Below are positions 15,875 through 60,025 of a DNA stretch of 64,000 bases, piece by piece; position 1 is the stretch's first letter; every line of letters begins with the position of its first letter. The translations under genes were made by a program, and so were the position numbers. Source of the DNA: Pelagomonas calceolata (Eukaryota); the NCBI GenBank assembly GCA_918797485.1, contig CAKKNE010000004.1:620001-684000 (forward strand), given 5' to 3'. Below the pieces are notes generated by a model. It was not told where the DNA came from. It ran no database searches and saw only the letters and a list, made by a program, of their open reading frames with translations.

Positions 15875-16169
15875 CCGTCGTCCCGCGTCCGAGTCCGCCT
15901 CGCCATTCGCCTACTTTTAGCCCCACGTTCGACGGGATTGTTACTTTCTAAGCACGCTATCCTGTCAGTTCGCTCCGCACCGCTCCTCGAAATACCCCGC
16001 ACGCATCCACTCTCGAGTCTCGATATCGCGATCCGCCACGCGCTGCGCATCCTACACATCGATCGACATCGAGGCTGCCTCAGCGTGCGCCCACTGTCAC
16101 GCAACCGAGAGCTCGTAGCTCGGGCAGCCGACCAACCATCAGTGACAGGCGCAAGGCCTCGGTCTGCCC

Positions 16170-17237
16170 ATGGAGCCCCTCAAGGGCGCCACCGTCGAGC
16201 CCATGAGCATAGGCACGCTGGACGAGCTGGACGGGGCGGCATCGGCGCGGCGCCGCCGGCGGTGCCGCGTCGCCGCGGGCGCCTGCGCGCTGCTCTTCAT
16301 GGCGACGCTGGCGCTGCGCGTCGCGGCAGCGAGGAAGCCGGAAGACACGCAAAACATAGACGGGCCCGCCAATTACATGCAGCCGGTCCAGACCGTCGGG
16401 CTCTTCAACCGCGCCACCGGCCGGTGGTTGCGCGTCACCGACCAAGGCGGTGCCGACAGCCCGTCGACGGGCGTGTGGAATCAGGGCTTGACGTGGGAAC
16501 GCTTCGAAATTCGTCCCTTCAATGGGTACGCCGGGCTCTACAACCCGGCGACTAACCGCTGGCTGGCCGTCACCTACCAGGGCGGCGCCAACGCACCGCT
16601 CGAGGGCCCAGTGTTTGATCACGCCGCGGTAGTGTGCCACTTCGTCTTGAGGTTCAATCAAGACGGCACCGTGGGCCTGCAGAACCCGGCGACCGGCCGC
16701 TGGTTGCGCGTCACCGACCAGGGCGGCGCGGACAGCCCCTCGATGGGGCCCTGGCAGAGCGAGTGGCAGTGGGAGCGCTTCGAGCTGCGGCAAGCGGCCA
16801 TTTACATGCAGCCGGTCCAGACCGTCGGGCTCTTCAACCGCGCCACCGGCCGGTGGTTGCGCGTCACCGACCAAGGCGGTGCCGACAGCCCGTCGACGGG
16901 CGTGTGGAATCAGGGCTGGACGTGGGAACGCTTCGAAATTCGTCCCTTCAACGGGTACGTCGGGCTCTACAACCCGACGGCCAACCGCTGGCTGGCCGTC
17001 ACCTACCAGGGCGGCGCCAACGCACCGCTCGAGGGCCCAGTGTTTGATCACGCCGCGGTAGTGTGCCACTTCGTCTTGAGGTTCAATCAAGACGGCACCG
17101 TGGGCCTGCAGAACCCGGCGACCGGCCGCTGGTTGCGCGTCACCGACCAGGGCGGCGCGGACAGCCCCTCGATGGGGCCTTGGCAGAGCAACGGTTTCCC
17201 GTGGCAGTGGGAGCGCTTCGAGCTGCGGCAAGTCTAG
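16170..17237 (+). CDS. Type II membrane protein with two tandem fascin/beta-trefoil-like domains
   Basis: N-terminal TM anchor; 143-aa unit duplicated, each unit with three GLxNxATxRWLxV sub-repeats, two of them ending in WERF. Confidence 0.7.
   Translation: MEPLKGATVEPMSIGTLDELDGAASARRRRRCRVAAGACALLFMATLALRVAAARKPEDTQNIDGPANYMQPVQTVGLFNRATGRWLRVTDQGGADSPSTGVWNQGLTWERFEIRPFNGYAGLYNPATNRWLAVTYQGGANAPLEGPVFDHAAVVCHFVLRFNQDGTVGLQNPATGRWLRVTDQGGADSPSMGPWQSEWQWERFELRQAAIYMQPVQTVGLFNRATGRWLRVTDQGGADSPSTGVWNQGWTWERFEIRPFNGYVGLYNPTANRWLAVTYQGGANAPLEGPVFDHAAVVCHFVLRFNQDGTVGLQNPATGRWLRVTDQGGADSPSMGPWQSNGFPWQWERFELRQV
16374..17232 (+). repeat. Near-identical 429-bp intragenic tandem duplication
   Basis: TACATGCAGCCGGTCCAGACC at 16374 and 16803. 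Confidence 0.95.
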
Positions 17238-20098: not shown

Positions 20099-20122
20099 GC
20101 TAGTGTCTTACTGCACGCTAGC
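20099..20122 (-). promoter_or_regulatory. CTAG-bracketed intergenic motif copy
   Basis: rc GCTAGCGTGCAGTAAGACACTAGC. Confidence 0.7.
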
Positions 20123-35122: not shown

Positions 35123-35432
35123 CAGGGACCCGAAGAACCGTCAAAGCCGTTGTTTTCGCTTCTAGGAAACATACGAAGGGCAGAGACGACGTCCCGGCGA
35201 CCATTCACCGCGCCAGAAATCACGGTGACATTTTGGAGATGCCCTTTGGCAGTCGAATACGCCGCGCGAGCGCACCTGTGGCCCATAATTGCTCGCAGCC
35301 CTCACAGTGCTGCACAGCGACACCGCCCCCTCAATAATTTAGAGCGCTTCGGCACCAGACAGCTCGCTGCACCCCAAACACTGCAGCCAGGCTAAGCTAA
35401 CCCATCGCACGCCGCCGCCGCGCAGCCACGCC

Positions 35433-36038
35433 ATGGCCCTGCTGTGGAGAGGCTACTGCGCAGCGCTACAGCGCCACCCCTTCAAGGTCAAGGCCACGAC
35501 GTCGGGCTGCACCTTCGCCGCGACCGACGCCCTCGCGCAGTCGAGAGACGACAAGCCCTACGACTGGACGGCCACAGCAAGGAACGCGTCCTTCGGCGTG
35601 TTGTGGCTGGGCCCGGCGAACCACCTCTTCTGGGGTAGAACCGTCGGCCTCGAGCGGTGGTTTCCTGGGACCTCTTGGGCGAACGTCTTCAAGCGAGTAG
35701 TGGTCGATCAAGCAACTCTGATGCCGCTGAACATGGCCCTGTTTTTAGCGTGGCCGGCGCTGTGGGCCCGTGACTTGCAGAAGGCGCGGGAGGACGTCGA
35801 GGGGAGCTTCATCGACTCGGTCAGTTTCGCGCTGTGCGTGTGGCCGGTCGTGCACCCGTTTTCTTTCCGATACGTGCCCCTCGAGCACCGCCTGCTCGTG
35901 CTGAACGCGTGCAGCCTGGTGACGTTTTCGTTTGCCACGTTCGTGAAGGGGTCGCAGCCGTGCGACGACGACGTCTGCGATGCGAAGGCGTTGCAGCGAC
36001 GGCGGACGATCGCGGCGGCGGCCGCCGCCGCTGGCTAG
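35433..36038 (+). CDS. Mpv17/PMP22 family membrane protein
   Basis: Y..ALQRHP..KATTSG..DALAQ, VVVDQ..P, WPVVH..FRYVPLEHR. Confidence 0.92.
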   Translation: MALLWRGYCAALQRHPFKVKATTSGCTFAATDALAQSRDDKPYDWTATARNASFGVLWLGPANHLFWGRTVGLERWFPGTSWANVFKRVVVDQATLMPLNMALFLAWPALWARDLQKAREDVEGSFIDSVSFALCVWPVVHPFSFRYVPLEHRLLVLNACSLVTFSFATFVKGSQPCDDDVCDAKALQRRRTIAAAAAAAG

Positions 36039-36426
36039 CTTGTGTAACTTACGTTGTGGTCTTACGCGTCTTCAGACCCCGAGTCGTCGCCGCGGCGGAA
36101 GCGGTCGGCCACGCGGACCACGCGGCGCGTCCGCAGCTTCTCCTCGCTCGCGCGTTGGCTCCATACGCCTCCCCGACCGGTCCCCGAGCAGTACAGCGCC
36201 AGGAAGACTCATCCTGGCGCGGTCCCAAAAAAAGTAAACAGCGCCGACGGCGGGCGCTGGCATTCTGTTTGCGTGTGTTGCGCCTCGCCTCGGGCGTGTA
36301 GAAGGTAACCACCACTGCAGAAGGGCCAAGATGGCAGCCCAATCGAGTGCCAGCGGCTCCGGCAGCGATTCCGCCGATGCGCCAACAAAAAAAAAGAAGC
36401 GCAAAAAACGCAAAAAAAAATAAAGC

Positions 36427-36450
36427 GCTAGCGTCTGTTAAGACACTAGC
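36427..36450 (+). promoter_or_regulatory. CTAG-bracketed intergenic motif copy
   Basis: GCTAGCGTCTGTTAAGACACTAGC upstream of giant mosaic gene. Confidence 0.7.
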
Positions 36451-36646
36451 AAGCAAAAGCCAGGTTTGGCTGGTGGCCTACTGTGCCTTCTGCACAAGTT
36501 CGCCGACGAGCTCGACACGAGCGAGCCACGGACGCCGAGCGACGCTGCGCAGTGTCTGCTGCCCCAAAAAGCAGCAGGAAGTCCACTGAAGGGCAGCAGC
36601 AAGCCCACAAAGGCCACCGCCTCCGCGAGGCACGCGACGGCCGACG

Positions 36647-38899
36647 ATGGGCCGTGGCGCTGCGCGACGCACGGGAGATGTTGGGAGCGGGCCCGGCGGG
36701 ACCAAAGATGCGCACAAGAAGGCCTTGGGGCCCCAAGACGGCGGCGGCGGTCCGTCGACGGTAATTGCTTTGGGTGGAAACGGGTCGGGCTCGTCACATC
36801 CGACGAAGCCCGTCGATCTAGATGCTACTACGAAGAAACGTTACCGTTTACGCCATTTCAAACGTTTGAAAGAACGCAGCAACCGACGTAAGCGTGATCA
36901 AGATGAACGCCTTTTCACTAAAAGTCTGAAGGCGACGGCTACCAACGAAGAGCCGAATCGGAAAGAACGTCGCGAGGGTGTTCAGGGTTTTAAACCGGCC
37001 AAAAAAACAGTAAAATTGAGCGTTCCGCCGCCCAAGCCCGTGATCGTAGATGATGGCTCAAACAAATTTGGCTCTCTTCATGTGGAAACCGAAGTCACAT
37101 CATCTCTTATTTCTAAGACCACAACCGCCTCTACCACTACATCTGTCGAGGAAGACGTTTATTGGTCGCCACGCAAATCTACCGATAAACCAGTTATTTC
37201 CTACAAAGGAGAAGAGCTTGATCCAAAGGATGAACGTGACTCTAAGATTTGCAACGTCGTGCTGCGCGGTAATCACTATATTAATAAACAAGAGCGTCGC
37301 ACGACCTTCGTGGGGGCTCTGAAGACGCACTTCGACGCGCATAAGTCTGGTGATGACGGCCTGTCGAAGAAAGATGTGAACGCCGCGCTCAAGTCCTTTG
37401 CCAAGAAAGATAGAACGGGCAAGTTCCCGAAGCTCGAGGAGCTCGAGGCGCTGTTTGGAGACATGGATCTGAACGGCGCGGGCCGCGTGTCCTACGACGA
37501 GCTGACGGACTTCATCGACGACATCGACGCCGACGACATCGGCGCCGGCCGCAATCGCCGCGGGAAGGGTGCCGGTGGTATCGAAACGATTTACCTAAAA
37601 GAAGATCGTGTTCCTAAATTAGATTACATTTACCGTGAAGACCTACAAGTGACTTATTCTCTAAAATTAGGACGGTTGAAACTGCGGTTGAAACTGCGAT
37701 ATATAATTCAGCAATTGGCCTTCCGTCGTCAACACAAGGTGTCATTGAAGGTGACCCACCTGATGGCTGAGACCTTCAAACGCAACTTGATGTTCCTAAA
37801 CAACATTCCTAACAAAGATGTGGTGGTGTCTCATGGGCTTCTGGCGCTGCCTTCCACTTCCGACTGCGCGGCGACTGCTGCGCCCGGCGAGGCGTCCTTC
37901 GAGGGCCAGCACGCGGCACTTGCGGCGCTGGGCCAGGCCGTGCTCGCGGCGCTGGGCGTGGCGTTCTTCCAGGGCTCGACTCCTATCGATGTCGTCGGGG
38001 GCTACGTCTTCTCGCTGGACGTCCTCGGCGACGCGCTGTCGCTGGACGTGCTGACGAACTCAAATGTGCTTCACAAGACGGGCTTCATGGGCGCGGCGCC
38101 GACGGTGGTCTTCTTGGGTGGTTCGGAGGGACTCAACGCCCTCTTGCTGGACGCGTCGGCGGCCGCGGCGCTCGACGGCGTGTTCAAGGGCCTCTTCGGC
38201 GTCGCTGCGCTTCGCGGGCAACCGGTAGTCGTGGGCGCGGCGCCGGACGTGCCATTGTATAATTCTTCGGACGGCCTAGACGTCTTCTCGGACAACCTCT
38301 GCCAGCGGGCTGGCGGCGCGCGGCTCGTGGGCGCGTTGACGGATTCATTAGATGGGCTACGGACGGCGGGCCTCGCGGCGGCGGCCGCGGACGCGGCGTG
38401 CGTCCAGGGCTCGGCTTCGCTCGACGTCGCGTTGTGTCAGAACTCGCCGCGGGCCGTCGCGCGGCTCGTGGGCGCGTTGACGGATTCATTAGATGGGCTA
38501 CGGACGGCGAGCCTCGCGGTGGCGGTCGCGGACGCGGCGTGCGTCCAGGGCTCGGCTTCGCTCGACGTCGCGTTGTGTCAGAACTCGCCGCGGGCCGTCG
38601 CGCGGCTCGTGGGCGCGTTGACGGATTCATTAGATGGGCTACGGACGGCGGGCCTCGCGGCGGCGGTCGCGGACGCGGCGTGCGCCCAGGGCTCGGCCGC
38701 TCGGCGTCGCGTTGTGTCAGAACTCGCCGCGGGCCGTCGCGCGGCTCGTGGGCGCGTTGACGGATTCATTAGATGGGCTACGGACGGCGGGCCTCGCGGC
38801 GGCGGCCGCGGACGCGGCGTGCCCAGGGCCCGGCTTCGCTCGACGTCGCGTTGTGTCAGAACTCGCCGCGGGCCGTCGCGCGGCTCGTGGGCGCGTTGA
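36647..38899 (+). CDS. 5' part of giant mosaic gene (basic region, EF-hand pair, hydrophobic segment, start of VNTR)
   Basis: ATG 36647; DLNGAGRVSYDEL EF-hand; terminates after two 2-bp deletions in the repeat array. Confidence 0.6.
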   Translation: MGRGAARRTGDVGSGPGGTKDAHKKALGPQDGGGGPSTVIALGGNGSGSSHPTKPVDLDATTKKRYRLRHFKRLKERSNRRKRDQDERLFTKSLKATATNEEPNRKERREGVQGFKPAKKTVKLSVPPPKPVIVDDGSNKFGSLHVETEVTSSLISKTTTASTTTSVEEDVYWSPRKSTDKPVISYKGEELDPKDERDSKICNVVLRGNHYINKQERRTTFVGALKTHFDAHKSGDDGLSKKDVNAALKSFAKKDRTGKFPKLEELEALFGDMDLNGAGRVSYDELTDFIDDIDADDIGAGRNRRGKGAGGIETIYLKEDRVPKLDYIYREDLQVTYSLKLGRLKLRLKLRYIIQQLAFRRQHKVSLKVTHLMAETFKRNLMFLNNIPNKDVVVSHGLLALPSTSDCAATAAPGEASFEGQHAALAALGQAVLAALGVAFFQGSTPIDVVGGYVFSLDVLGDALSLDVLTNSNVLHKTGFMGAAPTVVFLGGSEGLNALLLDASAAAALDGVFKGLFGVAALRGQPVVVGAAPDVPLYNSSDGLDVFSDNLCQRAGGARLVGALTDSLDGLRTAGLAAAAADAACVQGSASLDVALCQNSPRAVARLVGALTDSLDGLRTASLAVAVADAACVQGSASLDVALCQNSPRAVARLVGALTDSLDGLRTAGLAAAVADAACAQGSAARRRVVSELAAGRRAARGRVDGFIRWATDGGPRGGGRGRGVPRARLRSTSRCVRTRRGPSRGSWAR

Positions 38900-40092
38900 C
38901 GGATTCATTAGATGGGCTACGGACGGCGAGCCTCGCGGTGGCGGTCGCGGACGCGGCGTGCGTCCAGGGCTCGGCCGCTCGACGTCGCGTTGTGTCAGAA
39001 CTCGCCGCGGGCCGTCGCGCGGCTCGTGGGCGCGTTGACGGATTCATTAGATGGGCTACGGACGGCGGGCCTCGCGGCGGCGGTCGCGGACGCGGCGTGC
39101 GCCCAGGGCTCGGCCGCTCGACGTCGCGTTGTGTCAGAACTCGCCGCGGGCCGTCGCGCGGCTCGTGGGCGCGTTGACGGATTCATTAGATGGGCTACGG
39201 ACGGCGAGCCTCGCGGTGGCGGTCGCGGACGCGGCGTGCGTCCAGGGCTCGGCTTCGCTCGACGTCGCGTTGTGTCAGAACTCGCCGCGGGCCGTCGCGC
39301 GGCTCGTGGGCGCGTTGACGGATTCATTAGATGGGCTACGGACGGCGGGCCTCGCGGCGGCGGTCGCGGACGCGGCGTGCGTCCAGGGCTCGGCTTCGCT
39401 CGACGTCGCGTTGTGTCAGAACTCGCCGCGGGCCGTCGCGCGGCTCGTGGGCGCGTTGACGGATTCATTAGATGGGCTACGGACGGCGAGCCTCGCGGTG
39501 GCGGTCGCGGACGCGGCGTGCGTCCAGGGCTCGGCTTCGCTCGACGTCGCGTTGTGTCAGAACTCGCCGCGGGCCGTCGCGCGGCTCGTGGGCGCGTTGA
39601 CGGATTCATTAGATGGGCTACGGACGGCGAGCCTCGCGGTGGCGGTCGCGGACGCGGCGTGCGTCCAGGGCTCGGCTTCGCTCGACGTCGCGTTGTGTCA
39701 GAACTCGCCGCGGGCCGTCGCGCGGCTCGTGGGCGCGTTGACGGATTCATTAGATGGGCTACGGACGGCGGGCCTCGCGGCGGCGGTCGCGGACGCGGCG
39801 TGCGCCCAGGGCTCGGCCGCTCGGCGTCGCGTTGTGTCAGAACTCGCCGCGGGCCGTCGCGCGGCTCGTGGGCGCGTTGACGGATTCATTAGATGGGCTA
39901 CGGACGGCGAGCCTCGCGGTGGCGGTCGCGGACGCGGCGTGCGTCCAGGGCTCGGCTTCGCTCGACGTCGCGTTGTGTCAGAACTCGCCGCGGGCCGTCG
40001 CGCGGCTCGTGGGCGCGTTGACGGATTCATTAGATGGGCTACGGACGGCGGGCCTCGCGGCGGCGGTCGCGGACGCGGCGTGCGTCCAGGGC
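38317..40092 (+). repeat. Coding minisatellite: 13 cores, with 12 intervals of 141 bp (x7) or 139 bp (x5)
   Basis: GATGGGCTAC core at 38351, 38492, 38633, 38772, 38911, 39050, 39189, 39330, 39471, 39612, 39753, 39892, 40033. Confidence 0.97.
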
Positions 40093-43000
40093 CCGGAGGC
40101 AGTCTTGTCCGACAATACCTTGTTAGATGAGGCCATGGAGAAACATCGACTCGATAGTATGAAAGAGCAAAAAGTGATACAAATATTGGTCGTTACCGCC
40201 TCGGGCGCGAAGAGGCCCTCTGTTTTTGTGAAGCCGTGGGCGATCGTCGGTGATCTCATGCGCGAGATCCAGCAGAAGATTGGTGGTCCCCTGTCAAAAT
40301 ATCAGTATCTGCAGTCCATCGGCGGCAGACAGATGCACAAAGCCGCTTTGCTCCAGCACTACGACATCCAGAATAATTCTACTGTGGTTTTGTCGGAGCC
40401 CTGGCCTGGGCATCTTCTAGGAGGCTCGTTGTTGTCGTTGAAAGAGCTCATTGACAAGGGCAGCCTAAACGTGGGCGACATCATCGTCTTCAGAGAACAC
40501 AATCACCAAGAGGAAGGCGAACTGCTCGAGAACGGTTGGATCAGGCACGAGGGCACAGTCTACAAGTCGGCGAGCGCGTTCGTGGGGGCGATGCGCGGGC
40601 AATCTTCCAGTGGATATAACTTTCTCTATACGGCTACCGGTACGCCGATCCAGTCGCTCCGCAGCGACCCCTCCGAGAGTAGCTCGAACGACGACGACTT
40701 GCGCAGCGACTCGAACAGCGACGACGAGGCGCCCCCGCAGCCGCCTGGGGACCAGCAGCTCGCGGGCCGGCGGCGGCGCCAGCCAACCGAGCGCTTTGAT
40801 CATCAACAGCAAGAGGGCGAGTATTATGTGAAGCGTGGGCCCGCTGTGGGTGGCGCAGGCGACGGTGACGACGACGTGGTCATGGAGGACGATGACGAGC
40901 AGTCCCAGCCGCAACAAGCTCCGCTCATATCCACACAACCTATAGGTAACAGTAGCTCGAACGGCGACGACTCGAGCAGCGACAGCAGCGAGAAGGCGAC
41001 GCCCTGGATGACCCGCCCTACGGACGACGCCCAAATCCGGCGCAACCAGGCCGAGGCGCGGAGGAAACTAGCTGCTGAGAGGGAACGGTTGAAGAAGAGA
41101 CCTTTAGCGAAGGGCGGATTGTCGTCGGACGGCGGCAGTGCATCAAAGCCCTCTCCGCAGAAGAAGCGCGCGCCGCCGCCGCCTCCTCCTCATGACGCCG
41201 ACATGGAGGACGAAGACGAGCAGCTGCAGCTGCAACGAGCTCTGATCATGTCCAAACAACGTATGGAAGAGGGATTGGTGAAGGACGATGGCAAGCCGGC
41301 GGCGAAGCCGAAGCGCAAGCGCCGCGTGATCGAAGAACTCGACGAAGAGGACGACGGCGGCGCGCTGGAAGGGCTCACATCTCAGCCGTCCCTGCCCGAG
41401 CCACCCTCGAAAAACGATGACGGTCATCCATCTGCGACGGCGGACCACGCGCGGCCCGGCGGTGTACCGCCACCACCTTCTCTCCCACCGGCGAAGCGCT
41501 CGTGCCAATCCTCTTCGCCGACCTCCGGGAATGTCAAAGTGTTCTTCGACGGCGACCTGCCTAGCGAGTCCGTTTTACAGGGACTGAGGGACGCGGGCGT
41601 CAGCATAGTGAATCGGCCGCGCGACGCTACGTATGTCGTGTGCGAGGAGCCGCTACGACTTTCGCTTACGTTTACCGCTGCCAGCTGCATCGTGCATTAT
41701 GCTGTGACTTACGAGTGGGTCCATGCTACCATCCAGGCCGTTCGCCCCGTAGATGCGACGAACTACGTTGTGGACAGCCACGAGCTCGAACAAGAAGTTG
41801 GATTTAATCTCGCCGATAATTTGAGGCGGAACCGTGAGGCGCGGGACCGCTCGGAATTACGCCTGCTTCAGGACTACGCGGTGTGTGTGGATCCGGACTT
41901 TCAGTGGCCACGTGATCTATTGCATGATTTGCAGGAGATGATCGACTGCTCCGACGCGATGCGGCTCGAATTTAGTAATGTGGTCGAATTAGACGGCACC
42001 CTACCGCAAGAAGGAGCCATCATCATCAAAGACGACAGTGGGCTAGTAGATGAGGCGCTTGTGGACGATATCGCGTCCCCAACCACTGTATTAAAGCACC
42101 GGTATCTCTGTGAGTGCCTTCTGAGGAGGGCGTACCCCTGGGAAGAAGTGGCCGAAGCACCAGCACCCGCCGCACCGGACTCGTCCTTTACGAGGCCCGC
42201 GACCATCGATTCCTTGAGGAACAACCCCCTTCCCTTGGAGTCTAGGCATAGGCCGCCAGGTAGCGCTATTGTGCATGGGGACTACGACCTCCTCGAGGTG
42301 CTATGTGCTAAAGCTGCTAATGCCACACCAGCGGAAGTTGTGGCCTGGAAAATTTATGGAAGTTTACGTCTCCAAGACCTCAAAGATCTCCTGGAAGCGA
42401 ACGGCCAGTCCAAGGTCGGCAACGAGGCCTTTGTACTCAGAAAGGTCATTGACGGCGCGGCGCGCGGCGCGCCGGCCATCTGTAGTATCTGTGGGCAAGG
42501 CAAGCCCAAGCCCGTCGAGGGCGAGCTAGGGAGGTGGTGTTGCCCCGGCTACTATGATCAGTCTTTATCTTATACGAGCTGCCCCCAGACCTGGACGGAC
42601 GCGACACTACCTAGAAAGCAGTGGATCGATACAGATAGAGGCTTCGGCGGCCGGGCGAACCCTCCTTCTGTCCCTCTGCCCACGAGCTTCACGCAAGATG
42701 AGGTTAACGACTTCTACGCCAGAGCTGAGACTCGCCCGGTGGCACCGGCCTGGATGAGAGCACAAGTTGAGGAGGCGCTGGCGCCCGCCCCGCGGCAGGG
42801 CGATGCCAACACGCTCGACATGCTAGGCGAGCTCGTCGACCAGTTAAACCCCATGGTGGTGCAGAATTCGAGTGCTGCGGTTCGCCTCAACGTCCACATC
42901 ATGGGGATGAAACTAGTGACGCTCGCGAGATCGGGCGGCGATGGCGACGATCACGAAGAGGAAGGCAAGACTGGCGGAGATCCGAGTCCGCCACCGGCTC

Positions 43001-46000
43001 CACCTGCTCCGCGGGTGCCACTGCCAGAGGACGCTGACAATTGGCCAAAAGCTTTCATTGAACTGCTGCGCGAGAAGAAGGTGAAGTGCACCTTTACGGA
43101 TCCAAATCCCAAGTCAGCACGGCGTTGGTTAGGCGCCAAGTCAGCAAGTGCTGCTCGCTATGATGGGTATATGGGCGCCACCAATATCGGGGATTATTTC
43201 GTCATCTTCGGCGGCAACATGGGTGACCTGCGCAACGATATCGATCATAAATACTGCAAGCTCGACAAATCGGCGCGCGACGCCGCGTGGCTCGAGTTCT
43301 TGGAGTCGGGCGAGGACTTTCAGTCGAAGGCGGCGGCGGCGGCGGCGAGGGCCAAGCCCGGCGCTAAATCGGGCGGCGGCGCCGCCGATGACGCTGATAA
43401 TGAGGACCTGATTGACACGGATACGAACCCTCCGACAGAGCCCCTCGTACTGCCACCTAACTGGAAAGACAGCGTTCGGCGGCGCCCGAACTCTCAGTTG
43501 GAAGCAGCGGTGTGTGCGCTGGATGCCGCCCTCAGGGGCAAGACGAGCTTTACTAAGGAATGGGACCTACTCTTGAAGCATCGCTGTTATTGTTTATATC
43601 AACACGAGGACGATCCAGCTAATAAAGCAGTGAAGAACCTCGAAGTGCCGATCGGTTGGCCGTCATACAAGGGGTTCAGCAAGGACCCAAAGAAGAATAG
43701 ACCTTCCAGCCTGAAGTTGTTGCGCAAATACCTCAAGTATGCACTGCGACTCGCGAAGGAAGGAGGCGAATACTGCCTAGACGGCGCGCAGAGCGAAAGC
43801 AATCGCTGGTGGCCGGAGGAGAGGGAGAAATTTCACGAGGCCATGGCGACGCTCAACATAAAGCGGAGCGGGGGTGCAAAGAACATATTGAAGGACGACT
43901 GCCGCCGGATCGCGGAGAGCATACCCAACAAAACGACTGAGCAGGTCCTTAGGCACGGTGTTGGTTACTTCAGCTCCTTCGATGCGGAAGCGCAAGCTAT
44001 TGAAAAGCTCACTAGAACTGGCGACCCCTACGTGAAGTCCGTCTTGGACACGGACGCCACCGACGCGTCCAAGCTCCTCTTCTGCATCATATCTACAGGC
44101 CGGTGGGTCGACGCCAAACTCATTGAATTGAGACTGTTAAAAGCTGGCCTAGGAGCATCACAAATACTGTGGGTCGTGGGCACCCAGGGAGAAGTGGCCA
44201 AGTACAAGTCGCAATGCTATGGTGAAGTAGTAGTAGGAGGCGGTCTCTCTGCGTCGAGAAACGAAGCTCTAGATCAGGCCCGACGCCGCGGCTGCGTGTG
44301 CGTGCAACTGAGGGACAGTGTTTGTAAGTGCGTGGTAATACAGGAGGGCAGATCGCTAGCTGATTTCCACAAAGGGATAGGTCTGTGGAAAGAGCCAGCG
44401 AGTCTGAAGGCGGCCAACACCGCGGGCTCGAAGAAGGTGGAGGCGACACTGGTGGTCGCGGCCGAGTTGTTGTACAAATTGATGAAAGCGACGGACAAAC
44501 GCTTGGCAGGCTGCTTCCCTGTCCGGAACGAGGGCTTCGCCGCAAGCAAGGAACCGGTGCAGCAGCGGGAACTTGTTGATGAAAGGCTGTTGGTAATCGA
44601 CCCGAAGGACACCGAATTGAAATTCGACGAATCATTGAATTTCAGGGAGGTCGACGAGTTCACGGCGCAGCACTTCAACACTTATGGCGGGATTTGTAGA
44701 TCAAACCGCGTGCTGTGTGTGGGACAAAACGACCAGAAGAAGCGACGTGTGGGGCTAGGATCCTGGGTCACCCCGGAGGGACCTAGTGAAGAGGATAAAC
44801 GGAACGCCATCGATTCACTGCTCAATAAGCATCGCGACTTGTTCCGTGAGAGGATCATCTACAATAGAACAACACGCCCGCACGATAGATATGTGTTGAG
44901 TTGGAAACAAAAGGACGCCTCTCCGGAGCCGAAGGATCAAAATGAGACCATGGAGGACGTGCAGCCCGGCGAGCAGACCAACCCGTCTACACAACTACCG
45001 TTCGACGCCGCGTCTTTGGCGGCCCTGGAATGTCCGCCGGTGCCGGCAGCTATGCGAAAACCGACCCCAAAGGAAAAATTTATACGCTTCGCATTTCTGG
45101 CGCGCGAGACGTTCAAGTGTGAGAACGGCGAAAAAAGCGAGGCTGCCCTGATTTTGCCACACGAAGAAGGCAATTCCCGACAGGAAGGCCAGGTTCGCGT
45201 GCTTTGCGAGTTAGTGAAAGGTAGGTTCACCCACAAGGTGAAGTTCGCATCACGTGCTTCTAAGGAGCAGCTTACTATTTTGGGAGAGGACGATTATGGC
45301 TTCGAATTTATACGGACGAAGGCGCCTGCGATGTACAGAGATATGAAGTGCATTTTTGTGGTGGATCCCAGGGCCAAGGGTGGTTCTTTCAGGCCCCGAT
45401 GTGCCCATGCGAAAGGTTTTGTCACACTCGCCAATGGATGTGCGCGAGGCTTAGAGTGCCCTAATTCTAAAATAGACATCGAACAGCACCACATCACCGC
45501 GCATGAACGCGACTGCCTCTTGGCCCCATCCACAATGCTCATCAACACGGGGTTGCTCGCCAGCGGCATTTGGGGAAGGCAACGACCCTTACACAAGCAG
45601 CTCAACAAGCTCTGGGAGATGATCCAGCATCAACATTCCATTAACGATAAAACCTTTGTCCATCGAAACGAGATCTCGGTTCCAGTTGACACTAAGCAGT
45701 CAGGCGACGCATATGGTGGACATAGTACTCTATGGAATGAACTCAAACCAGGCGGCAAATTATTTAGGCACTTGAAAGAAGCTGTTCCTACTCGTGTACA
45801 TGATCTGCTGCCAGAGGGTCTGCCCAACGACTTCACGACGCGGGGCACGTACTACGAACTCAAGAACGATAGTGAAGAATACTTCCCGTTCTGGGGCCGG
45901 GACACGCTTCTCTATTATGAGCCCAAGTCGAAAAATCAAACGCTGTCCGTCGTTTATGGGAAATGCCCCATAACAGGAGTGGGCGGACGAAAGACGAAGA

Positions 46001-46128
46001 AACAAAATCCTTTTCCCCTTGTGCTACACCACATCACAGTCGATAAAAAGGAATACTTTGTTGGCTTCATCAACGACAGTGTGAACAGGGGCCTCGGCAG
46101 CACCGGCGCCCCGAATCCGTTTGCCTAG
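39754..46128 (+). CDS. 3' part of giant mosaic chromatin/DNA-modification-domain protein (Ubl, RAMA, UIM, 2xBRCT, PADR1, SANT, GT-A, EndoVII-like); alternative start ATG 40135
   Basis: Uninterrupted 2124-codon frame with successive recognisable modules (see findings). Confidence 0.8.
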   Translation: MGYGRRASRRRSRTRRAPRARPLGVALCQNSPRAVARLVGALTDSLDGLRTASLAVAVADAACVQGSASLDVALCQNSPRAVARLVGALTDSLDGLRTAGLAAAVADAACVQGPEAVLSDNTLLDEAMEKHRLDSMKEQKVIQILVVTASGAKRPSVFVKPWAIVGDLMREIQQKIGGPLSKYQYLQSIGGRQMHKAALLQHYDIQNNSTVVLSEPWPGHLLGGSLLSLKELIDKGSLNVGDIIVFREHNHQEEGELLENGWIRHEGTVYKSASAFVGAMRGQSSSGYNFLYTATGTPIQSLRSDPSESSSNDDDLRSDSNSDDEAPPQPPGDQQLAGRRRRQPTERFDHQQQEGEYYVKRGPAVGGAGDGDDDVVMEDDDEQSQPQQAPLISTQPIGNSSSNGDDSSSDSSEKATPWMTRPTDDAQIRRNQAEARRKLAAERERLKKRPLAKGGLSSDGGSASKPSPQKKRAPPPPPPHDADMEDEDEQLQLQRALIMSKQRMEEGLVKDDGKPAAKPKRKRRVIEELDEEDDGGALEGLTSQPSLPEPPSKNDDGHPSATADHARPGGVPPPPSLPPAKRSCQSSSPTSGNVKVFFDGDLPSESVLQGLRDAGVSIVNRPRDATYVVCEEPLRLSLTFTAASCIVHYAVTYEWVHATIQAVRPVDATNYVVDSHELEQEVGFNLADNLRRNREARDRSELRLLQDYAVCVDPDFQWPRDLLHDLQEMIDCSDAMRLEFSNVVELDGTLPQEGAIIIKDDSGLVDEALVDDIASPTTVLKHRYLCECLLRRAYPWEEVAEAPAPAAPDSSFTRPATIDSLRNNPLPLESRHRPPGSAIVHGDYDLLEVLCAKAANATPAEVVAWKIYGSLRLQDLKDLLEANGQSKVGNEAFVLRKVIDGAARGAPAICSICGQGKPKPVEGELGRWCCPGYYDQSLSYTSCPQTWTDATLPRKQWIDTDRGFGGRANPPSVPLPTSFTQDEVNDFYARAETRPVAPAWMRAQVEEALAPAPRQGDANTLDMLGELVDQLNPMVVQNSSAAVRLNVHIMGMKLVTLARSGGDGDDHEEEGKTGGDPSPPPAPPAPRVPLPEDADNWPKAFIELLREKKVKCTFTDPNPKSARRWLGAKSASAARYDGYMGATNIGDYFVIFGGNMGDLRNDIDHKYCKLDKSARDAAWLEFLESGEDFQSKAAAAAARAKPGAKSGGGAADDADNEDLIDTDTNPPTEPLVLPPNWKDSVRRRPNSQLEAAVCALDAALRGKTSFTKEWDLLLKHRCYCLYQHEDDPANKAVKNLEVPIGWPSYKGFSKDPKKNRPSSLKLLRKYLKYALRLAKEGGEYCLDGAQSESNRWWPEEREKFHEAMATLNIKRSGGAKNILKDDCRRIAESIPNKTTEQVLRHGVGYFSSFDAEAQAIEKLTRTGDPYVKSVLDTDATDASKLLFCIISTGRWVDAKLIELRLLKAGLGASQILWVVGTQGEVAKYKSQCYGEVVVGGGLSASRNEALDQARRRGCVCVQLRDSVCKCVVIQEGRSLADFHKGIGLWKEPASLKAANTAGSKKVEATLVVAAELLYKLMKATDKRLAGCFPVRNEGFAASKEPVQQRELVDERLLVIDPKDTELKFDESLNFREVDEFTAQHFNTYGGICRSNRVLCVGQNDQKKRRVGLGSWVTPEGPSEEDKRNAIDSLLNKHRDLFRERIIYNRTTRPHDRYVLSWKQKDASPEPKDQNETMEDVQPGEQTNPSTQLPFDAASLAALECPPVPAAMRKPTPKEKFIRFAFLARETFKCENGEKSEAALILPHEEGNSRQEGQVRVLCELVKGRFTHKVKFASRASKEQLTILGEDDYGFEFIRTKAPAMYRDMKCIFVVDPRAKGGSFRPRCAHAKGFVTLANGCARGLECPNSKIDIEQHHITAHERDCLLAPSTMLINTGLLASGIWGRQRPLHKQLNKLWEMIQHQHSINDKTFVHRNEISVPVDTKQSGDAYGGHSTLWNELKPGGKLFRHLKEAVPTRVHDLLPEGLPNDFTTRGTYYELKNDSEEYFPFWGRDTLLYYEPKSKNQTLSVVYGKCPITGVGGRKTKKQNPFPLVLHHITVDKKEYFVGFINDSVNRGLGSTGAPNPFA

Positions 46129-46145
46129 TTCGCGCCAGCCGTGCG

Positions 46146-46490
46146 TTATATATAGCGGAGGCACGACCGCGGTCCTACTATTAGAGTCGGTATCGCAGAC
46201 ATGTCGACGCTTAGTCGACGCCTACAATTCATTACGTGTGCGAGGCCATGAGTCAGAGACGCCGACGAGGCCATGAGCACACTCGCGGGTCGTGTATTAT
46301 ATATAGCGGAGGCACGACCGCGGTCCTACCATTATCTTTAGTACAACAGACCAGTATGGAGATTACTAGGACGGACTCCCACAGATTTAGTACAACGGCC
46401 CACCGCGGATTTACTACGGACACCGCGGTATTACTATGGATCCATACGGATTTAGTACAACGCGCCGCTGCGAATTTACTACGGACACGT
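46146..46490. repeat. Cluster of short direct repeats downstream of giant ORF
   Basis: 33-bp TTATATATAGCGGAGGCACGACCGCGGTCCTAC at 46146 and 46297; TTTAGTACAAC x3; ATTTACTACGGACAC x2. Confidence 0.85.
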
Positions 46491-46782
46491 GAGCGGCGAG
46501 CACGACGCTCGACGGAGCGGATCGTGCAAGAAGAAAACTTTGGGTTAGATTACCGAGCGTCGGAAGGCCCCCGAGGTCAGGTCGGCGTCCGTGGCCACCA
46601 TCTGCCGAATGGTGGTCGCGTATTAGAGGCGAGCGGTCGGGAACGGATCGGACTGGTTATTGCGACAGGACCGGACTGTTAGGGCCGCCCACGGTTGCTG
46701 TGCGACGCCCCGCGCGGGGGGGCATTTCGCACGTGGCCGTGTTAGTGTAATGTCTATAAGAAGTATTTCTAGTAAGTATTCT

Positions 46783-47025
46783 CTACAGAGATTCATCCTG
46801 CTTCCGGACCAATTCCGTAAGCGCCATGTCGCTCTCGCCTTTATTGCGCACGTAGCCGCTCAGCGCGTACGTCTCCGAGCCGCCCGTGTGCAGGCCCGTG
46901 TTCGGGTCGATCGTGCCGACGTTGATCTGGACCGAGGCCTGGTCCGACGCGCCTATGAGCCGGTTGGTCCAGCTGCACTTCCGCGGGATGTAGAGGTCGA
47001 CGGGCTGGCCCTGGTCGTTCTGCAT
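46783..47025 (-). CDS. RPS21: 40S ribosomal protein S21 (eS21)
   Basis: MQNDQGQPVDLYIPRKCSWTNRLI..D.ASVQINV..YALSGYVRNKGESD. Confidence 0.97.
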   Translation of the reverse strand: MQNDQGQPVDLYIPRKCSWTNRLIGASDQASVQINVGTIDPNTGLHTGGSETYALSGYVRNKGESDMALTELVRKQDESL

Positions 47026-47170
47026 CCTGCTTTCTGTGGTTTTTAGACGGCTCTACGAGCAATGAGTAAGCCTGCGTGAGGGGGCGGCGGGTGACGCGTT
47101 GGCGGTCAGGTAACGCGGCGGCGGTCTTGCGGGTGCTTCATTGCAGCGTTGCATGTCTCTCGGCGGTCGC

Positions 47171-47290
47171 GGCAGCGCTTCGATGGCGTTGGTGCTTCGC
47201 GCGCCGCGGCGGGTCGCCGCGGCGCCTCGCGACAGCGCGTCGATGGCTTTGGTGCTTCGCGCGCCGCGCCGGGTCGCCGCGGCGCCTCGC
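47171..47290. repeat. Two tandem 60-bp GC-rich repeats upstream of RPS21 CDS (possible 5'UTR intron)
   Basis: CGATGGC(G/T)TTGGTGCTTCGCGCGCCGCG(G/C)CGGGTCGCCGCGGCGCCTCGC twice, 60 bp apart. Confidence 0.8.
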
Positions 47291-47718
47291 AGCGCCGCGG
47301 CAGCCGCAGCGATTGCATGTGCCACAATATCTCGCCGCCGCGGCCATTTGATGCGCTGATACTTTGTGAGCCGTTCAAGGAGTAGTAATAAAGTCCCTCG
47401 AAGCCACTCATGTCGTTGATAGGGGACGCAGGCCTGAACAATACGATTTGTTTGTTAATCGCGCAAGCGATGAAAGTTAGCGTAAACACACTAGCCCTAC
47501 GCATTCGATGCCTCCAGACCGCTTCAAGCCTGAGTTACGGCCGCTGAGACGAGTCTCGGGACCCTTACCTCAGGAGAGCGCTCTCGTAACATTACAGCAC
47601 AACTGAACGCGACGGCGCCACAGACGCGCAGACGCACTATTGAACGTGAGAGAAGCAAGCTCAGCAGTCCCAGACGCTGTCGCCGCGGCGTGCTGCAAGC
47701 GGCACCGCAAACGGCACG

Positions 47719-57627: not shown

Positions 57628-57751
57628 CTCGCCGAGAGCACTGGCAGGCTAAATTGCCGGAGGAGGCAACCGCTTGCTCGCTTCGATCGCGAGGAGTTCG
57701 CCCTTGCCATAGCGCAGCACCTCGTGCGCGCGACACGACTTCCAGATCCAC

Positions 57752-60025
57752 ATGGCAAGATCTGGTGCTGAGCAGCCCGCGCTGCGGGTCTTACATCACG
57801 TCACCGCGCCGTACCGGGGCCGCGGGCAATTCGTTGGCATCGTCGTCAGCGTTGGCCGCGGCACTGTAGACGTGCACTTCCGAGACGGCGACTTCGCGGC
57901 CGGCGTGGACGCGGCGGCGGTGTCGCTGTACACGGGGCGGCGCCCGCGCGCCAGCGCCGGCTTGCCCCTCGCCGAGCGCATGCGTGTGGCTCTTCTGAAT
58001 CAGCCGTCGACGCCTCTCGTTGTCGTGGCGTACGACGACGCCTACGCCGTCGTCAGCGGCCCCGACGGCAACCGCGCGTACCAGCGGGACATGCTACGCG
58101 CGTTCGACGACCACGATTCGTCCGAAGACCAGGCGCCGGCCACGCCGATGGACGATGATGACGATGATGACGAAGACGCGCCCGCGCCGCAACTCGCGCT
58201 CGGCGAGACGGTCATGGTGGGACGCGTCGGGCACGTGGCGACGGTCGAGCAGGTGCCGCGCGCCAGCGATGAAAAAGTGCTGCTGCGCTGGGAGAGCACG
58301 GGCCACTGCGAGGAGGTCGCTCTCTCGGAAGTGGAGAAGCTCTCCGCGGGCCGCTCGTCGCGCCGGTCGGCTCCGCGGGCGCCGGTCGCGACGCCGCGGC
58401 CCTCGCCGCCGGCCGCGCCGCGAAGGCAGGCGCCGCCGGTGCCGCGCGTCACGCCCTCGCCGACACCTGAAGCGGCAGATAGTTCGGACGACGACGCTTC
58501 GTCCGTTCTGGCGCTTCGGCAGTACCAGCCGTTAGCCGATGATACCGGGACTGGTCAAGCCGATGCGCCGTTCGAGGGTTGTTTCTCGGACGACGAGGAT
58601 CCGGCGCCCAAGCGGGCGCGCAAGGACGAGACGGCGGACGACGAAGCCATCGCTGTCGCGCTCGCGGGTGTGTCTTCGGACGACGAGGGCGCCGCGCCGC
58701 CTTCGCAATTGGAGATCCCGAGGAACCTGCGAGACCACCTCAAAGGCGGCCCGAACGACCAAGCTCCGGCGCTCATGCCGCGGGACGACAGCGACGACGA
58801 CCGCGACGGCGAGGCGCCGGCGGCACCGGTGCGGTCGCGCCAGATTGTCGTCGGCGACGACGTGTGGGCGCGGTTCGGAGGCAGGGACGACTTCTACGCC
58901 GCGACGATCACCGCGGTCCGCCCCGACAACACGTACGACCTCATCTACCGGGACGGCGACGAGGAGTCGCGCGTCGCCGCGCCGCTCGTCCTGGCCGTCG
59001 GACTCACGTTCAAGGTGCGGTTCCGCTCGTCTGGAGAGCACCGAGGCACGGTGACGGCCATCGACCGCGTCAACGGCGTGACTCTGGCGTGGCGGCCCGT
59101 TGTGCCGAAGCCCGGCGAAGGCGTTGTCGTCGAGCACGAGACGCGCTCCTTCGACGAGGTCCGCACGGAGGTCATCGAGCGCGCGACGCCCAAGCCGCGC
59201 GGCCCGGTGGCGGCGCCGCCCCCGCCGGAGAAGAGAACGAAGGGCACGCGCGCCGCCCGGCGGCTCATCTTCGACCCGCGCGCGCCGCCGAAGCCTGCGA
59301 ACCCGCGCACGCGGGAGCCGGTCTTCAAGGAGATCTTTGCCGGGACGAAGAGACTCTCGACCGAGCTGCAGACGACCTACGGCTACGCGTGTGAGACGGT
59401 CGACGACATGACGTGGCCCGGCGCGGCGCGGCCGAGCCGGCGCTGCTGCGTGCTGGACTACTCGATCGAGAACGTGGGCTGGGTCGACGGGGCGCATTTT
59501 GCGTTCCCGTGTAGGACGTTTAGCGCCCTGGCGATCGAACATCACCGGCCGTTGGTCGTCCGGGGCCGCCGCGTGCTCGAGGGTTCTTCGATCTCGCCCG
59601 AGGCGCAGAAGGCAAACGCCGTCGTGCGCCACTGCATCGAGCTCATGCGCGAGGCGCGACGCGTCAACCCAGAGTGCGTGCTCATGGCGGAGAATCCCGC
59701 GACGGGCTACCTGCAGCACTTCCAGCCCTGGAAGGACGCGGTCCGCGAGTTCGGGCTCGTGCGCCGCGACGTCACTTACTGCAAGTTCGGCGAGCCGATC
59801 CGGAAGCTGACGTCGTTCTGGAGCGACATCCCGGCGCTCCACCAGGAGGCGGCGGACGACCGCCTCTGCTGCTCCGCGGAGAAGCCCTGCCAGCACTTCG
59901 GGGCGCACGAGTCCGTACAGGGCGACGTCGCCAGCGCCGCGAGCGCGTACCCCCAACGAGTCGCCAACTGGCTCGCGCGGCTCGCGAACGGCGAGATGGA
60001 GTCGCGCGGCGCGCGGCGGCGCTAA
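57752..60025 (+). CDS. Tudor-like domains + C5 cytosine DNA methyltransferase-like domain
   Basis: EIFAGT (motif I), FPCRTFS (IV), MAENP (VI), YCKFG..RKLT (VIII), SAYP (X); N-terminal SH3/Tudor-like barrels. Confidence 0.8.
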   Translation: MARSGAEQPALRVLHHVTAPYRGRGQFVGIVVSVGRGTVDVHFRDGDFAAGVDAAAVSLYTGRRPRASAGLPLAERMRVALLNQPSTPLVVVAYDDAYAVVSGPDGNRAYQRDMLRAFDDHDSSEDQAPATPMDDDDDDDEDAPAPQLALGETVMVGRVGHVATVEQVPRASDEKVLLRWESTGHCEEVALSEVEKLSAGRSSRRSAPRAPVATPRPSPPAAPRRQAPPVPRVTPSPTPEAADSSDDDASSVLALRQYQPLADDTGTGQADAPFEGCFSDDEDPAPKRARKDETADDEAIAVALAGVSSDDEGAAPPSQLEIPRNLRDHLKGGPNDQAPALMPRDDSDDDRDGEAPAAPVRSRQIVVGDDVWARFGGRDDFYAATITAVRPDNTYDLIYRDGDEESRVAAPLVLAVGLTFKVRFRSSGEHRGTVTAIDRVNGVTLAWRPVVPKPGEGVVVEHETRSFDEVRTEVIERATPKPRGPVAAPPPPEKRTKGTRAARRLIFDPRAPPKPANPRTREPVFKEIFAGTKRLSTELQTTYGYACETVDDMTWPGAARPSRRCCVLDYSIENVGWVDGAHFAFPCRTFSALAIEHHRPLVVRGRRVLEGSSISPEAQKANAVVRHCIELMREARRVNPECVLMAENPATGYLQHFQPWKDAVREFGLVRRDVTYCKFGEPIRKLTSFWSDIPALHQEAADDRLCCSAEKPCQHFGAHESVQGDVASAASAYPQRVANWLARLANGEMESRGARRR

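Follow-up and report, generated by a model that had tools for sequence, protein, structure and literature searches.

A multi-copy, recombining mosaic gene of Pelagomonas calceolata that joins chromatin-reader domains to a predicted tandem His-Me finger nuclease

What kind of gene combines an EF-hand pair, a ubiquitin-like domain, readers of modified or damaged chromatin, a glycosyltransferase-like domain and a nuclease-like end, and why does it lie between two host genes? The question is raised by a locus of Pelagomonas calceolata, an abundant oceanic picoalga with few recognised transposons, at positions 36647–46128 of a stretch of 64,000 nucleotides (nt) that we call the window (GenBank assembly GCA_918797485.1, contig CAKKNE010000004.1, positions 620,001–684,000, forward strand). 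A first-pass annotation, made from the letters alone, had read the locus as a patchwork of captured domains, as in a cargo-carrying mobile element or a virus-derived effector. We find that P. calceolata carries a real, undescribed, multi-copy and recombining gene that joins reader domains to a putative nuclease. The full-text literature, with subscription journals largely outside the search, gave no paper describing either the mosaic gene or the domain family, here called HH..N, at its end.

The same architecture is found in independent assemblies. Protein P0020 of P. calceolata (CAH0376129.1, 2,531 amino acids (aa)) keeps a single frame all the way from the basic N-terminus, across four cores of a variable-number tandem repeat (VNTR), to the same C-terminus, and is 94% identical to the window copy over 687 aa of the N-terminal part and 76% identical over the last 1,078 alignment columns. 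The metagenome proteins P0001, P0003 and P0008 join the EF-hand to the ubiquitin-like (Ubl), RAMA, BRCT and PADR1 domains via one or two VNTR cores, and mismatch-free contigs span 1,530 nt across RAMA-BRCT. In the portion of a published gene table available to us (PMC9481584), at least two genes with EF-hand, Ubl and BRCT domains occur among the 17 BRCT rows listed, one on chromosome 4 between Mpv17 and RPS21, as here, and the other on chromosome 5 between SPC12 and an SCC2-like gene, with unrelated neighbours. Misassembly of the architecture is excluded, since a P. calceolata paralogue and wild copies stay open across the VNTR; the paralogue, the metagenome proteins and the two table loci show therefore that the mosaic is both real and dispersed. 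The long, near-perfect VNTR with its 2-nt losses, possibly uncorrected read errors, would suit an assembly chimera. For the architecture, however, that explanation is refuted by the common domain order in one frame in P0001, P0003, P0008 and P0020, by the zero-mismatch contigs and by the published position between Mpv17 and RPS21, and we give it almost no credence. Nor is the gene a conserved single-copy orthologue: a full-length search, which is blind to long proteins clustered under short representatives (P0020, for example), gave one match among 7,984 scored candidates, belonging to this family, and no full-length relative outside it, and the named members of the related protein cluster are P. 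calceolata. The expectation of a patchwork gene that is neither of these things has thus held, with several copies seen in independent assemblies.

The locus is laid out as follows, in window positions.

35343–36038 (+): Mpv17/PMP22 host gene, the left flank (Pfam E 2.4e-11), at single-copy depth with base-depth contigs to 36195
36050–46780 (+): repeated unit, approximate, with its left end at ~36050–36200 and right end at ~46750–46780 from the depth step and end comparisons; no terminal inverted repeat (TIR) or clear target-site duplication
36062–36208 (−): putative 3′ fragment of a divergent small open reading frame (ORF) from the ORF list; variant reads lie in the opposite orientation, with a loose end at 36158
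36427–36450 (+): recurrent promoter-like motif, found upstream of host genes too (seven exact window matches against 0/100 shuffles)
36647–38899 (+): N-terminal ORF of 750 aa, with basic region, EF-hand pair and Ala/Leu-rich segment; it leaves the family frame within the VNTR
38317–40096 (+): coding VNTR, 12.7 × 141 nt (47 aa), 5 of the 12 full units being 139 nt
40138–46128 (+): C-terminal ORF, 1,996 aa counted from the first ATG after the VNTR
46129–46780 (+): transcribed non-coding 3′ region, retained by deleted copies, with two pairs of direct repeats (68 and 60 nt) and a 12-nt palindrome (46708–46719)
46783–47052 (−): RPS21 (ribosomal protein S21), the right flank, from its translation; single-copy depth, gene order as in the published table

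The gene had been described as a single intact intronless ORF, but at this locus the VNTR splits it into frames of 750 and 1,996 aa. Within the span 36647–46128 the stop-to-stop frames 36590–38899 and 39754–46128 differ in register because of the five short VNTR units, four of which share a 2-nt loss while one has another (anchor-to-anchor count). Were all units full, the protein would have 3,163 aa; other copies have 1, 2 or 4 core units, all in frame. The losses at the window locus may be uncorrected read errors. A real break would leave only the 1,996-aa part to be translated, and that from its own ATG if at all. PolyA reads, at low depth and with the VNTR outside the coverage, showed no splice joint over 36647–38300 or 40100–46128. 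The small ORF at 36062–36208 is apparently longer in another copy.

How many copies are there, and how do they differ? At the left end, base depth is 166–178 (run X3) and 480–575 (run X2) up to 36195 and rises several-fold inside the unit in both DNA runs; variant contigs over 36.5–36.75 kb have depths of 600 and 1,651 in two DNA runs, and base-depth contigs start again at 46747. Taken as a rough guide, contig depth fits about four 5′ ends per genome of a unit at ~36.1–46.78 kb. In both P0020 and another copy, L001, an unrelated cassette of ~220 aa replaces 42146–42970, which holds PADR1, and most of 40946–41434 is missing. Deletion derivatives retain both ends of the unit. In the one with the best support, 37831 is fused in frame to 46088; it is present in an X1 contig from both sides and in the 407-aa proteins P0019 and P0022, of which P0019, a short EF-hand form, is on record as the product of a transcript. 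In other derivatives the points joined are the alternative cassette and 46.25 kb (P0023), 40.7 kb and 46.14 kb (P0007, a weak match of 13 residues) and, out of frame, 42897 and 44046 (P0003), and a deletion from 37032 to 37709 is present in RNA and DNA. P0020 and L001 are identical in five successive 60-aa windows and then differ in patches, some of which match the window copy. This patchy identity suggests conversion or recombination between copies, short-read chimeras being an alternative source of the patches. The behaviour foreseen for a cargo-carrying element, that is, multiple copies, swapped modules and internally deleted derivatives, was found, and these features would suggest mobility.

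The gene before Mpv17 and RPS21 match consecutive Aureococcus accessions, and the mosaic gene matches another Aureococcus protein (~1e-17). With gene order in Aureococcus deduced from accession numbers alone, this hints that the cassette is absent there and arrived after the two genera split. No empty allele of the insertion site was found in the DNA and RNA runs compared with the locus.

The domains of the mosaic, all on the (+) strand, are these.

37307–37528 (+): EF-hand pair (Pfam EF-hand_7 E 1.8e-6, 28.6 bits, cut-off 30)
40174–40425 (+): ubiquitin-like domain ending LLGG (Pfam ubiquitin E 0.13; ubiquitin chains among the PDB matches)
40438–40659 (+): RAMA domain (Pfam PF18755 E 9.5e-9, 35.6 bits, above the cut-off of 35.2)
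41212–41256 (+): UIM-like helix (motif by eye; Pfam UIM E 0.061, in P0020 only)
41530–42141 (+): tandem BRCT of Brc1/MDC1/PTIP type (Pfam RTT107-type BRCT E 0.031)
42146–42970 (+): exchangeable cassette holding the PADR1 zinc domain (42370–42600), swapped in P0020 and L001
43069–43275 (+): NPK..ARY..GDL..D module without a recognised family (two other TAGT proteins have weak look-alikes, i-E 0.13 and 0.28)
43804–43971 (+): SANT/Myb-like segment (Pfam Myb E 0.23 in P0020 only; the window segment has no match)
44074–44844 (+): TAGT/GREB1-type glycosyltransferase, a predicted pseudo-enzyme without the family motifs DD, GD, KEDYD and H..N..GG
45049–46125 (+): C-terminal domain of two homologous HH..N repeats (~45412–45555 and ~45955–46098), a predicted tandem His-Me finger nuclease

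The domain order and coordinates given by the first-pass annotation were right, and so were the EF-hand, the Ubl with its GG, RAMA, tandem BRCT, PADR1 and the TAGT-type transferase; UIM and SANT were recovered only weakly, in P0020. Ubl, BRCT and PADR1 are weak in Pfam yet are the top PDB sequence matches of their segments. For the BRCT pair the best of these are Brc1 (E 6e-4), MDC1 (9e-4) and PTIP (0.016), and for the PADR1 segment PARP1 (E 0.058), with Pfam PADR1_N at E 0.066 and the PADR1 zinc ribbon at E 0.11. The terminal GG of the Ubl is kept in all five proteins checked; we take it to lie four residues later than in ubiquitin, and the arginines to be absent. Library searches with the NPK module gave no meaningful match. 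The alternative cassette of ~220 aa (L001 1119–1793; P0020 ~1283–1484) appears by eye to consist of small beta-barrels and gave no Pfam or PHROG match. In addition, 56 RNA reads match the PADR1 segment at 42442–42500 with fixed differences and then run into other sequence; the gene behind them is possibly the donor of the PADR1 cassette. Another gene with ubiquitin, BRCT and SANT domains, Pca_4p06830, stands in the available part of the gene table (PMC9481584).

Does the transferase still work? Its homology is clear, with Pfam E 1.6e-4 (below the curated cut-off) and phmmer matches down to E 2e-57, and 144 of the 150 matches listed for the last 692 residues of the protein fall on it. It is 45% identical to a 390-aa stand-alone TAGT (45–48% overall), and stand-alone Aureococcus proteins of ~390 aa are its nearest named relatives. 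Like the mosaic, other members of the TAGT/GREB1/base-J family (PF20691) are fused to further domains, namely chromo, MBD or ligase domains among the 34 proteins scanned. Seven of the 34 (P0097, P0098, P0103, P0106, P0137, P0146 and P0183) are fusions with an ATP-dependent DNA ligase. Unlike the mosaic, most members have DD, GD, KEDYD and H..N..GG intact. In GT-A enzymes DD and KEDYD serve in metal binding and as catalytic base. Of 147 homologues, 133 passed a length filter (14 were removed) and were aligned; 131 of the 133 have the second D of SDD and 125 the D of GD, while K-E-D-Y-D are present in 127, 127, 127, 124 and 117, and H..N..GG in 117, 112, 122 and 120. In the window copy, P0018 and P0020 all of these residues are replaced except the E of KEDYD. 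The mosaic keeps 21 of the 36 positions conserved at 90% and loses 15, and the 21 are invariant in the three copies (0/21 vary, against 36/174; p = 0.016). Judged from these alignments, the mosaic transferase is most likely a dead enzyme; an active DNA glycosyltransferase, as might have been supposed, is not supported, the key motifs being lost in three of three copies aligned. The dead domain may still bind modified bases. GREB1 has itself been linked to phage TAGT and base-J transferases, as the accessible part of PMC7968844 has it.

What had been taken for a Cys/His cluster followed by a terminal nuclease-like motif proved to be two repeats of one undescribed domain, for which a nuclease fold is predicted. 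Stand-alone versions of this domain are found in metagenomes. HH and N of repeat 2 are invariant in 23/23 rows (P0016, broken ahead of the motif, was excluded), HH..N is kept in repeat 1 of the window copy, and the motifs are retained across mosaic and stand-alone members at ~30% identity. Positions conserved in the stand-alone family vary less than others among seven mosaic copies (6/39 against 80/205, p = 0.0055). In a model of P0069 (pLDDT 81.7), both repeats place HH within a beta-hairpin and N at the first turn of the helix that follows (E338–345, E348–356, H357–365 and E162–169, E172–180, H181–191); the window model has the same order. His-Me nucleases are defined, in the part of PMC5714182 available, by a D/E/H followed by the catalytic His in the first strand, together with an Asn/His in the first helix turn, and the predicted models therefore agree with this definition. 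T4 endonuclease VII and Hpy99I are both among 15 weak structural matches of the end domain. The end domain is predicted to share with them a beta-hairpin and helix, with HH on the first strand and N at the opening turn of the helix, and the G-(7)-N-x-G-L-G spacing also resembles that of EndoVII-type motifs (by eye, against the T4 sequence). In contrast, the end domain has two repeats in one chain and no match at the sequence level, and EndoVII has CxxC zinc pairs and DHxH, both absent here. The EndoVII label had to be abandoned, as there is no profile match and the zinc pairs are lost. Endonuclease_7 (PF02945) gave no Pfam match in 12/12 proteins at E up to 10, hhalign against T4 gp49/Endonuclease_7 gave a probability of just 0.2–0.4%, and of the CxxC pairs and D-H-D-H only the first Cys is kept, with HH in place of DH. 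On the models, the end domain is predicted to be a tandem His-Me-like nuclease, and the HH..N domain probably forms a separate, undescribed family of the His-Me finger kind.

How is the reading frame maintained? Between the window copy and L001 (1,376 codons) dS, the synonymous divergence, is 0.088 and dN, the non-synonymous, 0.107, giving dN/dS = 1.21 (bootstrap 0.97–1.56), and no segment has an interval entirely below 1; these are Nei–Gojobori values for one pair, with codon bias and conversion not accounted for. Twelve of the 13 indels in 42970–46128 are multiples of three (P = 1.7e-5), and the remaining one breaks L001. Stops are absent from the 1,996-codon frame, against a mean of 14.4 in neutral simulations, where zero was never reached in 300 runs. 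Thus, the open frame has been preserved, with most residues free to change or changing faster than expected under neutrality. The abrupt shifts in composition reported earlier were overstated for total GC, which in 500-nt windows is 0.50–0.74 in the gene and likewise elsewhere in the window, but they do hold for GC at third codon positions (GC3): 0.36–0.46 in parts of the mosaic N-terminus against 0.69–0.90 in 18 host ORFs. Codon use is least host-like at both ends of the mosaic gene. Sense polyA depth (run X21, 6% sampled) is 0–15 along the ORF and 54–110 over the 3′ region, and 1,054, in the opposite orientation, for RPS21. Many polyA reads carry other letters and may derive from other copies or another strain.

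To which class of element might such a unit belong? Pfam scans of the window segments and P0020 gave no DDE transposase (seven segments, E up to 1), no reverse transcriptase and no Helitron Rep/helicase, a few segments having no assigned family. The best end-to-end local alignments score just 20 and no TIR was found, the unit ends being approximate. A 6-nt direct repeat at 36042 and 46745 includes TGTAA, which follows several stop codons in the window. Helitrons are marked by a 5′ TC, a 3′ hairpin with CTRR close behind it and insertion in AT; here the palindrome at 46708–46719 lies 50 nt from a CTAG at 46769, in a region that folds no better than shuffles (z = −1.18). Gene-capturing transposons such as Helitrons and Pack-MULEs resemble the cassette in their patchwork cargo, in internally deleted copies with both ends and in a variable GC palindrome near the 3′ end, whereas the cassette has no RepHel, transposase or TIR and holds its cargo in one selected reading frame. 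For free-standing homing endonuclease genes a His-Me nuclease is proposed to drive spread by cutting and recombination, and the same proposal, of spread driven by a His-Me nuclease, is made for KolobokP transposons in the accessible text of PMC9587614. The cassette differs from these in having no intron or intein host, no DDE transposase and no long terminal direct repeats, and in that its nuclease ends a reader-laden ORF of 2,500–3,200 aa. A modified-base reader, RAMA, does share one ORF with the predicted His-Me domain, and for this there is precedent. As far as the available part of PMC4738411 goes, RAMA has HNH and other restriction nucleases as fusion partners in prokaryotes, has BRCT and PARP zinc fingers as partners in eukaryotes, and occurs in large DNA viruses. 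The mosaic shares with these proteins the company of RAMA with BRCT, PARP-type zinc domains or HNH nucleases, and differs in that a single gene, multi-copy and recombining, unites all of these with Ubl-GG, EF-hand, VNTR and a presumably dead TAGT, an architecture absent from the available part of that paper.

We tentatively favour, at somewhat less than even chances, a selfish, nuclease-driven cassette that is multi-copy, fast-evolving and copied during break repair. The reader domains would dock the giant protein on chromatin, RAMA on methylated DNA and BRCT, UIM, PADR1 and SANT on damaged or ubiquitinated chromatin in the nucleus, with the dead transferase as a binder of modified bases. The terminal His-Me-like domain would then cut DNA, and the cut sites would be mended by copying the cassette through homology- or microhomology-led repair, with no transposase. 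Repair between copies could swap modules and yield deleted forms, the long ORF would have to stay open to reach the nuclease, and a deubiquitinase might release the C-terminal part after LLGG. The stronger proposal, a new eukaryotic selfish element of ~10.6 kb with no transposase or reverse transcriptase, whose undescribed tandem His-Me nuclease is steered to modified or damaged chromatin by in-frame, exchangeable, captured host readers, a DNA glycosyltransferase turned reader among them, and released from the polyprotein by host deubiquitinases, we consider doubtful. The architecture and the fast change would be accounted for as well by a conflict effector of the host that would be the eukaryotic equivalent of modification-dependent (type IV-like) restriction and whose copies would be ordinary host duplicates. 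This is possible, though we think it the less probable, and the same holds for its detailed form, in which methylated or glycosylated bases of viral or mobile DNA would be recognised by RAMA and the dead transferase, and the DNA cut by the end domain. Module swaps and fast amino-acid change, with dN/dS ≥1 and an open frame, would then be the marks of an arms race; the RAMA-HNH fusions of prokaryotes (PMC4738411, in the part available) offer a precedent, the 21 TAGT fold residues that remain do not vary among three copies, and the promoter motif is of host type with low sense expression. However, 1 lies within the dN/dS interval and linkers evolve at the same pace as domains, as neutral cargo would, the 21/36 TAGT positions kept are little above the 45–48% overall identity to stand-alone TAGT, and deletions keeping both non-coding ends are unexpected for a plain duplicate.

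The gene could also be a young duplicated chimeric host gene with no nuclease or mobile activity, serving as a chromatin scaffold or drifting as the product of a 'gene nursery', in which case what is useful may be the short EF-hand form that is expressed. The dN/dS near 1 in every segment, the broken wild copies, the frame break at the window locus, the record of P0019 as a transcript product and the lack of any hallmark of mobility would all suit this. We nevertheless think it unlikely, as a drifting 6-kb frame should carry ~14 stops and mostly frameshifting indels, and HH..N is kept across mosaic and stand-alone members at ~30% identity. A remnant of an integrated giant virus or virophage-like element might be read from the intron-free sequence, the lower GC3, the least host-like codons at both ends and the occurrence of RAMA in large DNA viruses (PMC4738411, accessible part). 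But four protein scans and one pattern scan of viral contigs, together with phage genomes, gave no relative, these scans needing near-exact short peptides so that distant relatives escape; the unit has no capsid, polymerase or packaging gene, and the nearest named relatives of the transferase are the stand-alone Aureococcus proteins. The viral origin suggested by the first-pass annotation has therefore not been borne out, and we regard it as very improbable.

Several other features of the window are recorded here. The promoter-like motif of ~24 nt (GCTAGCG, 2–6 nt, TAAGACACTAGC) lies upstream of many genes, with seven exact matches in the window and 0/100 in shuffles, and is heavily repeated genome-wide judging by contig depth; it may be a core promoter element or a small interspersed repeat.

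11935, 20099–20122 (−), 28482, 30723, 35099, 36427 and 60105: exact forms of the motif
5652, 9638, 23010, 31580 and 63235: looser forms

TGTAA often follows stop codons (for example at 8651, 10737, 28413, 36043 and 49712; seen without a control), which suggests a UGUAA-type polyadenylation signal in P. calceolata. Beside RPS21, at 47070–47439, 33 RNA reads leave out 368 nt that are bounded by CT..AC on the + strand and contain a 60-nt tandem repeat; this is a GT-AG intron in the RPS21 5′ untranslated region. An ORF at 57713–60025 (+) has repeated Tudor/agenet-like segments and gave no Pfam match at E 0.01 and no PDB sequence match; motifs in its C-terminal region are, we assume, reminiscent of a C5 DNA methyltransferase. 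At 326–6016 (−) there is a large ankyrin and TPR protein with internal duplications, whose N-terminal part gave no match and is presumably reminiscent of a RelA/SpoT-like nucleotidyltransferase. A ricin-B-type lectin protein (E 1.2e-12) at 16146–17237 (+) contains a 429-nt tandem duplication at 97%.

What the mosaic gene means depends on the reading. If either of the two readings with a working nuclease is true, P. calceolata would offer a case of selfish spread with no transposase or of a eukaryotic modification-dependent defence nuclease. Two results stand under either reading: a probable natural pseudo-enzyme of the TAGT/GREB1 kind, with glycosylated or hydroxymethylated bases as possible marks in pelagophytes, and an unannotated tandem HH..N family, stand-alone in metagenomes and directly assayable.

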